A DNA stretch of 64,000 nt from Ruditapes philippinarum. Taxonomy: Eukaryota. The stretch lies in assembly GCF_026571515.1 (NCBI RefSeq), contig NW_026858357.1, forward strand, positions 124,001 through 188,000, in the 5' to 3' direction. Made by a program: the position numbers and the translations under genes. How positions within the stretch are numbered: position 1 is the first letter of the stretch; the number at the start of each line of letters is the position of its first letter. This document shows, piece by piece, positions 56,809 to 62,081 of this stretch. The notes under the pieces are model-generated. The model saw nothing but the letters and a program-made list of their open reading frames with translations. It was not told the origin of the DNA and made no database searches.

Positions 56809-59389
56809 ATGGGATATAAATTGACTTTTTTAATCCTTGGACTTTGCCTGATTGCACATTTTGATGCGGCATTAGGTAAGTTGCGTTTCTATTGTAATAA
56901 TTGTCCGGTTTTGTACCAGCAAGATTATTAGTATAATATATATATCTCATAGCTCTAGCAGGTGACGTGGTTTTGACCATGGCGTTGCTCCTAAGGTTAG
57001 CCAAAATCATCTTTCCTTTTTCCTGCGCCATATGATTACGCTATGTTAGTGCGCCGTAAAACCAAATACAAACAAATACATTTTTTAAATTTGTTTCTAA
57101 AATCGTATTTGCTGTCTGTAATAGTGCAGTCTTGTCAATCACATGAAACGGCTGTCTAGATATATACATGGTTACTTATCTTAAACACTCGATTTTAACA
57201 AACATTTTCGTCTGCCTTCTTCTTTTTCGTCTTTAAATAAAGAAGGCTAATTTCCATGAAAAAAAAAATGAAAATGTATTTAAAAAGGACATATTGCGAA
57301 GTGAACCAAGAAAGTATTACAACACTATTACCAAAAAAAAGGTTAAAATATGGAAAAAATAACCCTAACTGAGATAGTCACACAGAAGAAATGCGGTAAT
57401 GATGCATTAAATGCTCATAATACTTTAATTAGTACTTAATTACTTGAATCGTTTTACTTTTCTTGAAAGCTTAGTACATTTTTCTCAAGTTTAATTTTCT
57501 TGAAATAGTTCGGCTCACCTAGAGGCATGCAGCTTTAAACCTTCTTAATGTGTGTTATAGATTTGCCCAGCTGTCCCATAAAACGGGCTCAAATTTGTCT
57601 TTGTTTTAGAATTTCTATGAAACGGTATCCAAGAAATTTATTACTTTAAAAATGCTTTTGACACCTGTTACATGCCAGAAAACGTGTACGAAATAAGTTT
57701 CTCTTAGAATATGCTCCTTAAATGATAAAACATGTTACTATGAAACGTTTAATACATATTTATAAGATTATGCGAATTAAACTATAAATATTTCTGTGCA
57801 ATCACGTGTTTTAATAATCAGATTACTGTTAGCACGAGATACTTGAATTGTTGAAGTCCATAAACATAGCCAAAGCTTCTGCCTCTGTCCATTTTGTGCT
57901 TAAGTTTTGTAAATAAAATGTAAAATAAAAAATGTGTTGTTTTTTAACGTACGAATGAACACATCCATACAGTATATATACACAGGCAAAATTTTCCTTT
58001 CTTCATTTTGAATTTTTCATTCATTAATCTGTAAATGTCCTCAAAATGAATACACTACGAAGTCACAGGAACAAAACCTTTTCTCCTTTATAAAGAATAA
58101 AATGGTGGTTTCGCTAACTTGACCCAGCTGTGGGCCAGCTTTGAGCGTAAAGAATTCACAATATATATATGTTGTCACAGGTGAACTATTGAAACGTTAA
58201 AGAACATGTCAAGTGAATGATTTAGGTTTTGTTTCAATCATACAATATCCACAATATCTGTTATTGTAGCTTCAGGGTTTGTTCAAGTCACCATGACTAG
58301 TTTTAAAATTACTTGGTGATTCTGTCGGCGTCTAATTTCGTTCACCATATTATAGATATAAATGTACGCTTTCAAACCCAAAATACATAAATATATACAG
58401 AAATTTCATGCTGGGACTCTTACAAATGTCATTTTAGCGTGATTTGAGTGCATAAGATTTTTTTTTTATATTTTTGTCATTAATTTGGCCTGAATATCCC
58501 TTAAATAAAGTTTTTATTTCTTCCATTTAAAAAAGGTTTAAAAAGAGACCTGTCTTGTGGCTGCATGCCAGTAGGAGGAGCTGTGGTACCAACTGGATAC
58601 GAATTCCTTGCCTGAAGAACATAAACAGCCTACAGTTGCGAAAGTTCCGTGGAAAAATATATTGTTGTAAGAGCCAAGAAAGACATCTACCCTGTAAGGT
58701 GACGGACACTAACAGCTTATACCGTTTTAATTTTTTTTCTATCATTTGCACGTCCACTGTCAACATATTCAGATACGTGTATTTTTTTATTAGAATATTA
58801 TTTTAAAAAACTTTTATCGATACTTAATTACAGCTTATATTTTTTAAATTTCTTGTTACCATTGTATGTCCACTTAAAATAAACTGTATACGATGATAAC
58901 AAAATTCTTTATTTTATTAGAACAGTTATAAAATTTTACTTATATTATTCAATTTAAGGTTTATTTATAGAGTTTTCGGTGTGTCGTTGCTGCTGTTGTT
59001 GTATTATAATTATTGTTATCATTATCATTATTTTTAAAAAATAATGTTAAAAAGTTGTTAAAATCATTGCATTGTAAATTCATATTTGTGTTTGTTACTA
59101 ACAACAAATAAAAACAAACAAAGCTTTGTTTCTATACTTGATATCAATTCCACCGGATTTCTTTTTGTCTGTCAGTGTGTATGTTTTTAGTAAATTATAT
59201 CCTGGTCAAATATCTTAAAACAAAATTTCAGAACAAAATTTAGCTCTGAATACTGGTTGATATAACTGGTTTAATTTAAGTTGTGTCTTTAAAAGATTGT
59301 AATAAAAACTTAAAGGTCTCTTTTACTTATTTCAGGGTTCCTGGCACGATACATTACATATAGAAAGAACAGACAAACTGCGACTGTAA
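56809..59389 (+). CDS. Putative secreted cationic Cys-rich peptide, beta-defensin/anemone-toxin-like (~115 aa precursor)
   Basis: Exons 56809-56875 (signal MGYKLTFLILGLCLIAHFDAAL, donor gtaagt), 57561-57624 (DLPSCPIKRAQICLCFRISMKR), 58536-58698 (FKKRPVLWLHASRRSCGTNWIRIPCLKNINSLQLRKFRGKIYCCKSQERHLPCK) and 59336-59389. Phases 1, 2, 0 are consistent. AATAAA at 59414. An alternative donor at 58694 would give a different tail. Confidence 0.65.
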
Positions 59390-62081
59390 ATTAATTTGTG
59401 ACAAGAAATGTAAAATAAACGAATATATCCATTACTCTTTACTTTGTCTTACTGAATATTTTATGTTCCAGATTTTCGAACGTCCCTGTGCCGTATTATG
59501 CCATGTGGAACATATTTTATTTACGGTAATTACATGTATGAATACCTGATTAACCGAGGAAAGGAAGAACATGTGTAAGCTTTGAATTACCTTATCCCAT
59601 ATTTATCTGTTCATTATCTAGAAAAACGTCAACTTCATTTCTTAAGAAATATATTTTCCAAAGTAAGGAAATTATACATGTATCTTCCATGGAGCGTGAA
59701 AGAAAGCGATCGCAATTTCGTTCAATTCTCCAAGAAAAATGTCCGATAGCCGGTCATTCTCCTTTTTTCTCGAATATTTGAGTAAACTTGAAACTCAACA
59801 AGCATGGACTTATAATGCTTAAGAAAAAAACGATTTTTATAATCAATTTTCACATGTATGTCATCGTACGTTTTTAAAACAATATGATTATATACAGTAA
59901 AATAACAATATTTATCAATTTAAAAGTATCATTTATTCAAACAAAGTTGGGGAAAATACTACGTTTTATTAATTATTGTATAAATTTATATAAAACGAAG
60001 TATATCTAATGAGATACAATAAAATAGTGTTTGATAAAAACAATCCTTTGGTGAGAACTGAATAAGTAGACCCGAAGCAAACATAAAAAATACCGGACAG
60101 TCCGCGTACCATTTACCGTCGATCCATTTACAGCGCTTTTGCAATTGACGTCACTAACGTTGCGTCAATTTTCCGCTTTCATCCTCAAACATTCCTGTGA
60201 GAGATTTTGTATTCGCCGTTTACCAGCTGAAAACGATTGTCCTGATGGCAGGATAATTTTCCTTTCTTAATTTTATCATTTTGTATGTATCTTGAACAAT
60301 ATTAATTGCCACTTTGTTGGCACAATTTAACGATTGCATGAATTTCTGTTTATTACCGAGTGTCGTATTTCTACATTTAACACAATAATCACAGCTATTC
60401 AAAACTAAATAATTATGTCATTTCATGCCCTAATGACGTCAAATTTAGATGTAATGTCACTTAAATATAAATAAATGTGTAAGTGGAATATAATGGACAA
60501 ACAGAGTATAAATTATGAATAAATCAAAAGTATAACTTAGATTCAATAACTAGTTTTATGTGCTGCGCCGGGTGCATGTTACCATGGTTATTCAATATCA
60601 CAGGAAACGCGCGTTCATCAGAATAAATTAATAAACTTATGCATAAGTTGTAGAAAACATTTTACGATCCCTATACATATGAAAATATTCTAAATTGGAT
60701 GAAATATGAATATGCAAGACTCTCAGTCATATAACTTTTTGAACAATCCTCGTATTCCTAAAAACATGATAAATGCCATCAAATTTAATCTATAAATTCA
60801 AACGTACATTGTATATTAATGTTTGGCTATAATAGACGTTATTTCCTGGAATTCGAAATCACGATTATCATGCTCTACATTAAATATCAGTAGCATGTCT
60901 AGTCATTGAATCTGGAAGTTTTTTTTTATTTCCAAATTTCTATGCAGATTTACCTCCATGTTGCAGATTTAAAAGAGAAGCAAAAATAAAAAGAGGAGAA
61001 AAATAGAAGTCAAGTCAGGTCAATATTTATCTATTGTCGGAATTACATATATAATAGTTTAACATAACCTATGGAATAATGGGTAAAAACAACATAGCAA
61101 AAACAGAAACAAAAAAAGAAGCATATCTTGGTCATAATGGGCCTTTAATCACAGAATAAAATCTTAATTATTAAACTATAGAGGTTTAAACTTAAAATAA
61201 TTGAAAATGATAAGAGGTGTTGGAAAACCATTCAGCATAATTATAATAATCTGTCCAGCATAAAAAATCATTAATTCTTAAAGATTTAAATTAAACCGTT
61301 AAAAAATAGAGTATAAAATAGAGTGAATCGTCTCGGGGGTGGGGGGGTAAAAAACGTATCTACTTTAAAGCGCTGTTTAACCTACCTAAAAACCTGAACT
61401 CTAAACCATTATTTAGTACTTTACAACCAGTCAATAAGAAGCCGTAGAAAAAGAAAATAGTCGTACTATATAAACACTTTTTAACCAATCGGGATCTCTG
61501 TTACTAATCGATGGCAAAAGACCGCGAAATTTTTCCCGAGGAAGTAGAAAAATATAAACAAACTCTGAGTTCACTTGTTTTGAAGTCACTTGAAATAACT
61601 ATAACCATATGAACTGACTTATATTTTCAAAGGTTATAAGTATCGATTAATGAGCATGTGAATATTACCGTGAATAACAATGTAAGGCGAAATGGCAGCC
61701 TTCCAAAGTCCAAGGCCAACGCCACATTTTTTTCAGGAGGTGCAAACTTTCTCCACGAAAAAGGCATGTAACCTTTATTATTTTATTTTATATTAGCTAT
61801 AACTCTTCTTTTAATATGTGCCACTTATTTCCCGCATAGTTTATGTCATATGGATATTGAGAACGGATGGACTTCCTTGTATAGACCGTTACAGTTACAC
61901 CCCTGCTCCATCATCCTTGATACAACTGAGTGGAGCAAGATAATTTTAAATTATTTGGTCAGTTTGACCTATGGAAATCTTTCCTTCACCTGCCACCTCC
62001 CTCCACACCCCCTTAATCCACCAAAAATTGCAGACGTCTCTTTATGTTACAGATATCAACTTTATTTTTCTACTTTTAGTC

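Follow-up and report, generated by a model that had tools for sequence, protein, structure and literature searches.

A spliced six-cysteine peptide gene of the clam Ruditapes philippinarum and its apparently undescribed, mostly acidic, defensin-like family

Gene structure and transcripts

We analysed a 64,000-nucleotide stretch of the Ruditapes philippinarum genome (NCBI RefSeq assembly GCF_026571515.1, contig NW_026858357.1, positions 124,001 to 188,000 of the forward strand), hereafter the window, in which a small peptide gene has its start codon at 56809 and its poly(A) site at 59434. A first-pass annotation, made from the letters of the window, had placed here a four-exon gene for a cationic, eight-cysteine peptide resembling the anemone channel toxins. 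Transcript contigs show a spliced, polyadenylated gene of three exons, two of which are coding (Table 1). Our overall reading, to which we assign a probability of about 0.5, is that this gene encodes an acidic six-cysteine, likely secreted, defensin-like peptide that may bind targets in defence, and that its copy in the window has been garbled by assembly error.

Eight of the 24 listed sequencing runs were compared overall; the raw RNA runs X15 and X20 among them placed 0 reads. Four contig sets (X1, X2, X4 and X6) were compared with positions 55500-60500, and the best 15 of 24 joints were examined. None of the sets is recorded as RNA; X1, X2 and X6 were taken as such on the basis of their spliced joints, and X1 and X2 also on the basis of poly(A). 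The first exon runs for 67 nt from its ATG to the GT donor at 56875, is extended upstream by transcript contigs as far as 56766-56773, and is identical to the window in the X1 contig over 56773-56873 (0 differences). It is joined directly to 58536 in three of the four sets, namely in X1 at a depth of 913 (shorter arm 101 letters), in X2 at a depth of 1337 (shorter arm 25 letters) and in X6 as a two-letter bridge at a depth of 3.4, while X4 has almost no exon cover and shows no such joint. Transcript contigs also contain the joint from 58698 to 59336, and those of X1 and X2 carry poly(A) tails at 59434, 15 nt past the AATAAA signal. A single 369-nt X1 contig spans all three exons, without a difference in exon 1 and near-identical in the last exon.

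A second transcript variant was seen in X2 (58685-59355), with another start of the last exon and a depth of 360 vs 1125; hence several alleles or close copies are expressed. Intron 1 contains repeats (57466-57540 and 57980-58490) on which many unrelated contigs pile up at high cover in each of the four RNA-like runs.

Many of the elements in the first-pass annotation were confirmed: the ATG at 56809, the splice sites at 56875, 58536, 58698 and 59336, the AATAAA at 59414, the open frame at 58537-58698 and, among its predicted junctions, 58698/59336. Its additional exon at 57561-57624 was not. The junctions 56875/57561 and 57624/58536 occur in none of the best 15 of the 24 joints, an X1 contig at 57569-57741 (depth 3.4) crosses the donor of this exon unspliced, and the segment 57371-57788, which contains it, is missing from the intact copy described below. 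The exon-skipping alternative that the annotation had named (GLKRDLSCGC..) is the one the transcripts follow, as they join exon 1 straight to 58536.

Intact copy and its predicted peptide

The genome searched comprised 1.41 Gb in 15,874 contigs; the window lies on contig C6844, and copies are named here by contig. A DNA search with each exon found an intact copy on C4276, at 98%, 82% and 95% identity for exons 1, 2 and 3, respectively. Because C4276 is collinear with the window contig from about 56064 for about 30 kb, mostly at 85-99% identity and with large indels, the simplest view is that it is the other haplotype. The middle exon of C4276 has an open frame (P0001), which encodes three residues ending in KR, followed by a 43-residue peptide with the cysteine spacing C-x-C-x5-C-x15-C-x6-CC. 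This peptide contains 11 Asp/Glu vs 4 Lys/Arg, giving a net charge of -7, and its frame ends 7 residues past the CC doublet. The stop lies 1 nt ahead of the homologue of the 58698 donor, the last exon being untranslated, and the intact precursor is 69 residues long.

The leader is hydrophobic, with a hydropathy peak of 2.9-3.3 over an 11-residue span. It is very probable that the signal is cleaved near residue 23 and the three-residue pro-piece removed at KR, and a compact three-disulfide peptide would then be secreted.

Extra letters in exon 2 of the window

Extra letters in 58572-58655 and 58686-58694 put exon 2 of the window out of frame, and the true frame is legible as two pieces in different frames (58538-58571 and 58651-58685). 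The stretch between anchors at 58571 and 58656 is 84 letters long in the window vs 70 in C4276 and in X7 and X8, two DNA-like runs of one study with a single bridging contig each over the exon 2 core. X7 and X8 bridge this core, yet no contig of either run covers 58592-58625 at 80% likeness. The X1 contig over 58534-58685 has 138 letters vs 152 in the window, with 9 substitutions and 16 gap letters. The extra letters are absent from each of the four other sources across the core (C4276, X1, X7 and X8); further on, 58686-58694 comprises 9 letters in the window vs 4 in C4276.

Unpolished long reads typically leave patches biased towards insertions. Relative to C4276, the small indels of 58000-58999 number 25 extra vs 6 missing (p=0.0009), in exon and introns alike, and those of 60200-60599 number 15 extra vs 6 missing (p=0.08), where the p-values are descriptive only, as the patches were picked after the profile was seen. 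The remaining aligned region outside both patches shows 9 extra vs 15 missing. The second patch implies more unpolished stretches in the contig, so other odd frames there need care. We therefore hold with high confidence that exon 2 of the window was garbled by uncorrected long-read insertion error and is not a dead haplotype.

The competing explanation, that the window copy is a family member but a genuine frameshifted (pseudogene) haplotype, is unlikely. It draws on the strong divergence of haplotypes here (86-99% identity with large indels), on the difference at 58686-58694, which is a block and not single letters, and on the presence/absence variation described for bivalve defence genes (PMC7203481). 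Against our own view, a dead haplotype private to the assembled individual keeps a small probability. However, more than ten scattered small insertions within about 85 bp, and the same insertion bias in the flanking introns and near 60200-60599, are hard to reconcile with a pseudogene. In addition, at 58538, where C4276, X7 and X8 all depart from the window, none of the differences listed for X1 occurs, and one X2 contig of the last exon matches the window letter for letter (0 differences) while C4276 differs at 4 places; the short form is hence transcribed from window-type alleles. As the listed differences of X7 agree with C4276 at only 14 of 30 places, X7 represents a further haplotype.

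The four-exon cationic peptide is likely an artefact of this local long-read noise together with the spurious exon, and we regard it as practically excluded. Its GT-AG sites exist and its joined frame, with 14 Lys/Arg and 1 Asp/Glu, is open in the window, but the 64-nt exon is unused in the joints examined and absent from C4276, the frame shuts after 19 residues in that intact copy, and the extra letters are missing from all four sources. The tryptophans that had suggested a likeness to ATX-II lie in this closed frame.

A small, fast-changing family

Protein searches of the genome agreed on five intact copies (C4276, C2777, C7871, C8023 and C8747), which is a lower bound. As C7871 and C8023 share 97% peptide identity and lie in collinear surroundings, they are likely alleles, and the loci number at least four. 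The six cysteines, a DG, a Tyr and the last Lys are invariant in all five copies and KR is present in four of them. The family spacing is C-x-C-x5-C-x13 to 15-C-x6-CC, so that four single cysteines precede a CC doublet in every copy. No copy has the two extra cysteines from which a fourth disulfide had been predicted, a Trp or a conserved loop Arg. The net charges are -7, -3, -1, +1 and -4 and the peptide isoelectric points (pI) 4.2-7.8, which differ from the net positive mature charge of cationic antimicrobial peptides. Four of the precursors are 67-69 residues long with a pI of about 4.4-6.9, and the C-terminal tails QERQK, YPKRK and QQTRK are basic. Of the earlier proposal of a mollusc cysteine-rich peptide with a leader and a CxC...CC frame, the expressed gene stood, whereas most of the peptide sequence did not.

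The gene organization is shared as well. A 67-nt phase-1 first exon occurs in all four intact copies with an exon 1 (none was found for C8023), and intron 2 begins 1 nt past the stop codon in three of the four intact copies checked. The exon holding the 3' untranslated region (3'UTR) is conserved in C4276, C2777 and C7871; a single motif search did not find it for C8747. In two paralogs this exon was observed to be 84-85% identical over 65-68 nt, their peptide-coding DNA being only 60-64% identical. An element of about 130 bp upstream of the gene is 71-87% conserved at C4276, C8747, C7871 and C2777, where it lies 0.3-2.5 kb before the start codon. A genome search with it gave 3 matches, all of them family loci, so it is not a common repeat; it is likely the enhancer of the family. 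Two further candidates, a weak CxC match at window position 46550 and a match on contig C136, were rejected as chance.

The peptide changes quickly on its fixed cysteine scaffold, and faster than the leader. Leaders are 55-91% identical among copies and exon-2 products 32-66%, and for distant pairs the Nei-Gojobori replacement distance (dN) is 0.48-0.64 in the peptide vs 0.23-0.27 in the leader. C7871 and C8023 are separated by 4 replacement and 0 silent changes. The ratio dN/dS, dS being the silent distance, is 0.42-1.18 over nine between-locus pairs, which indicates fast change but does not prove positive selection and in this respect weakens our overall reading.

Homology and fold searches

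At an expectation value (E) of 10 or below, Pfam returned no family for any of the five members or for the frame of the first-pass annotation, although the HMMER filters drop most rows above 0.1. The profiles PF07936 (Defensin_4) and PF18322 (clip-A) had no match at any family locus, so that no profile placed the peptides in Toxin_4 or Defensin_4. No relative of P0001 was found in protein databases, libraries that are weak for short spliced eukaryotic genes, and the family alignment matched none of 6 near-length and 1168 longer candidates at E<=10. A search of 1.8 billion representatives returned just two long proteins built of repeats (Sushi; DUF7507/DUF11), and both were judged chance. Among PDB sequences searched at E<=10 with one protein and two profiles, only a hydrophobin, a C-type lectin and a phospholipase A2 (PLA2) receptor appeared (E 0.2-2.3), and the anemone peptide helianthamide had no row. 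Five motifs of the family were matched by 0 papers in a text search that covers neither subscription papers nor figure images. The ESM Atlas gave no named match; an unnamed 96-member cluster, whose 69-residue representative shares the precursor length, scored 0.85 against P0001, below the reliable range.

AlphaFold was run on five-row family alignments, once with C4276 and once with C2777 as the first row, and the models reached a predicted local distance difference test (pLDDT) score of 68 and 83, respectively. In the C2777 model, residues 2-8 and 32-38 form two long strands, alongside two helices and a bridge of two residues; a helix follows the second cysteine in both models. When the pLDDT-83 model was aligned in full to 48,161 chains, just two rows reached Z>=2, and both are defensin folds. 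These are helianthamide (PDB 4x0n_B; Z 2.2, root-mean-square deviation (rmsd) 2.5, 34 residues aligned, 18% identity) and human alpha-defensin 6 (PDB 1zmq_A; Z 2.1, rmsd 2.1, 30/32 aligned). Beta-defensins have four single cysteines followed by CC (PMC6627431), and beta- and big defensin genes carry a phase-1 intron immediately upstream of the cysteine-rich region (PMC7203481). The disulfides of the beta-type fold pair C1-C5, C2-C4 and C3-C6. Because both rows at Z>=2 are defensin folds and agree with the cysteine pattern and the intron phase, a trans-defensin-type fold is probable for the modelled family.

Several observations count against this fold. The other four models of the C2777-first run score 68-72, and a Z of about 2 is far under the level that the tool treats as meaningful. 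The C4276 model gave one unrelated row only, and Foldseek found nothing related to either model, its three rows for that of C2777 (E 6-9) being unrelated. The C2777 model has more helix than the classical three-stranded trans-defensin. Moreover, many secreted proteins have a phase-1 intron behind the signal peptide, so this character is of low specificity. The defensin-like fold of the first-pass annotation thus keeps weak support from the two rows at Z 2.1-2.2 and none from Foldseek.

No clip or channel-toxin structure appeared among the fold rows, although this absence does not exclude either fold. It bears on two minor alternatives. One is a free-standing clip domain of the PPAF-II/clip-A type that regulates a protease cascade. 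The family segments CxC-[MI]-x4-C and C-x6-CC are like clip-A spacing, and both models have the helix after the second cysteine. The working definition of a clip domain, four cysteines before a cysteine doublet, would also fit (PMC11172050). As the PF18322 profile missed all family loci, no protease domain lies downstream and the fold rows hold no clip structure, we consider this very unlikely.

The other is an ion-channel modulator like the anemone APETx, BDS and ATX-II peptides, directed against predators or parasites. Anemone channel toxins (ATX-II/anthopleurin, APETx, BDS) share with the family the order CxC...C...C...CC and a length of 42-49 residues, and the CxC start and C-x6-CC end recall their defensin-fold representatives (fold class PMC6627431). 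In contrast, no profile matched: Pfam gave no row for any member and Defensin_4 missed all loci. The family is also acidic and lacks Trp and the loop Arg. To our knowledge bivalves have no venom apparatus. The Arg14 loop of the anemone sodium-channel (Nav) toxins lies between the second and third cysteines, where the family has 5 residues, much fewer than those toxins, and no conserved Arg. That loop is described as long and flexible (PMC6627431). A channel-modulating role is accordingly remote.

Comparison with known peptides

Helianthamide and magnificamide, the former being the top structural row, resemble the family in their roughly 44 residues, their acidity and a defensin fold, which in our case is predicted. 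Helianthamide differs in that no sequence match was found, the window-locus peptide is more acidic and the model is richer in helix. The mammalian alpha-defensins, represented by HD6, share the CxC start, the short gap to the third cysteine and the terminal CC. They are shorter and pair their cysteines C1-C6, C2-C4 and C3-C5. They are reported only from mammals (PMC7203481).

From the same kind of animal, Rp-ncBigDef1-5/VpBD share with the family 43-47 residues, six cysteines ending in CC, a phase-1 intron before the cysteine region and dibasic processing (PMC7203481). However, Rp-ncBigDef1 has the spacing C-x6-C-x3-C-x12-C-x5-CC vs C-x-C-x5-C-x13/15-C-x6-CC in the family, the Rp-ncBigDef pI is 9.2-9.6 vs 4.2-7.8, and big defensin genes are mostly coding in exons 2-3, whereas the family is coding in exons 1-2 with a 3'UTR exon third (PMC7203481). 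The general big-defensin spacing C-x6-C-x3-C-x12/13-C-x4/5-CC was likewise absent, the family intervals being 1-5-(13 to 15)-6-0, and with 3 residues between leader and peptide there is no canonical N-terminal hydrophobic domain.

The mussel family MgCRP-I is comparable in being a bivalve multigene family with a conserved pre-pro region, KR and a hypervariable six-cysteine peptide, but it has a C-C-CC-C-C array, a pro-region of about 15 residues, four exons and a basic pI (PMC4558851). RpdefB, a defensin-like antimicrobial peptide of the clam, has 70 residues, 7.5 kDa and a pI of 8.16 (PMC8719109); none of the four family precursors fits these figures, the comparison being by published figures and not by sequence.

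Other features of the window

Coordinates of the gene and its associated features are collected in Table 1. Elsewhere, a DEG/ENaC exon (amiloride-sensitive channel, PF00858, E 8e-9) lies at 31335-31679 on the minus strand, 25 kb from the peptide gene; a frame rich in Ser/Thr and Asp/Tyr comes before it at 34362-34988, and no link to the peptide gene was shown. The window also holds a sulfotransferase exon (222-827, minus strand) and a B-box/NHL TRIM-like gene (2949-5037, plus strand).

Table 1. Features of the peptide gene and the upstream element of its family.
Feature	Position	Strand	Remarks
Conserved upstream non-coding element	56354..56488	+	about 130 bp; invariant TAACAGGTG and TTGATT motifs; likely cis-regulatory
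Exon 1, coding part	56809..56875	+	22-residue hydrophobic leader and 1 nt; ATG 56809; phase-1 intron next
Intron 1	56876..58535	+	1660 nt, GT-AG; joint in X1, X2, X6
Intronic segment	57371..57788		418 bp; missing from copy C4276; contains 57561-57624
Insertion-biased noisy patch	58000..58999		exon 2 and both flanking intron ends; 25 extra vs 6 missing (C4276 as reference)
Exon 2	58536..58698	+	KR site and six-cysteine peptide; stop 58695-58697; donor 58698
Intron 2	58699..59335	+	begins 1 nt past stop codon
Exon 3	59336..59434	+	3'UTR only; AATAAA 59414-59419; poly(A) 59434
Upstream element elsewhere	L014; L015:2703-2825; L016:7861-7982; L017:1128-1233		all four loci

Proposed role

A variable surface on a rigid scaffold would suit the binding of a changing foreign target, for example a foreign enzyme. 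An acidic peptide agrees poorly both with membrane lysis driven by charge and with the sodium-channel toxins of anemones, which are basic. The alpha-amylase inhibitors helianthamide and magnificamide have a defensin fold and are acidic (pI 5.3 and 5.8), and magnificamide had no antimicrobial or channel activity (PMC6835510). Since the nearest structural row is an acidic inhibitor, and since its relative lacks antimicrobial and channel activity, we tentatively suggest by analogy that the peptides may act in target-binding defence, with enzyme inhibition as the first candidate, and not in membrane lysis or signalling.

The main rivals of this suggestion are that the peptides act on microbes directly or that they serve as non-immune signals. 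As direct antimicrobials they would be acidic-to-neutral defensins that work by killing microbes or, like alpha-defensin 6 with bacteria, by trapping them. The defensin-like frame, the KR processing site, the small diversified family and the basic C-terminal tails would suit such a role, alpha-defensin 6 is the second structural row, and big defensins span anionic to cationic members (PMC7203481). On the other hand, the net charge at the window locus is -7, the known beta-defensin-like peptides of the clam have a pI of 9.2-9.6 and a different spacing (PMC7203481), and the similarly designed MgCRP-I family of mussel showed no antimicrobial activity (PMC4558851). We thus regard direct antimicrobial action as a lesser, rather improbable option.

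Similarly improbable is a non-immune secreted signal or matrix peptide, such as a pheromone, a gamete-recognition peptide or an ion-binding peptide of mucus or shell. Dibasic processing, acidity and fast evolution suit reproductive or signalling peptides too, and the conserved upstream element and 3'UTR suggest tight regulation. Several orphan cysteine-rich regulatory peptides are described in oyster (PMC8398477). However, the structural rows are defensin folds, and no known hormone family was matched in Pfam.

Significance

Target-binding defence by an acidic defensin-like peptide remains our preferred reading of the gene. The family is apparently undescribed, fast-evolving and mostly acidic, although it might be included in supplementary files of further transcriptome studies on bivalves. 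An attractive false lead has been corrected as well, in that long-read noise and a spurious exon had mimicked a convincing cationic toxin. As orphan cysteine-rich families are frequent in bivalves, the surprise is moderate without a function. If the fold holds, however, the family would add a new cysteine spacing to the mollusc trans-defensin superfamily and would provide a small, testable natural set of acidic defensin-like peptides in a farmed bivalve. A bolder and doubtful idea is that of a separate, hitherto unrecognised clam trans-defensin lineage, which would combine a CxC start like that of alpha-defensins and anemone peptides with a beta-defensin-like tail and gene structure, and would have turned acidic and become a tight-binding inhibitor of foreign hydrolases. 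If true, it would place a helianthamide-like function outside sea anemones and would link the cnidarian CxC defensin-fold peptides to the bilaterian defensins.

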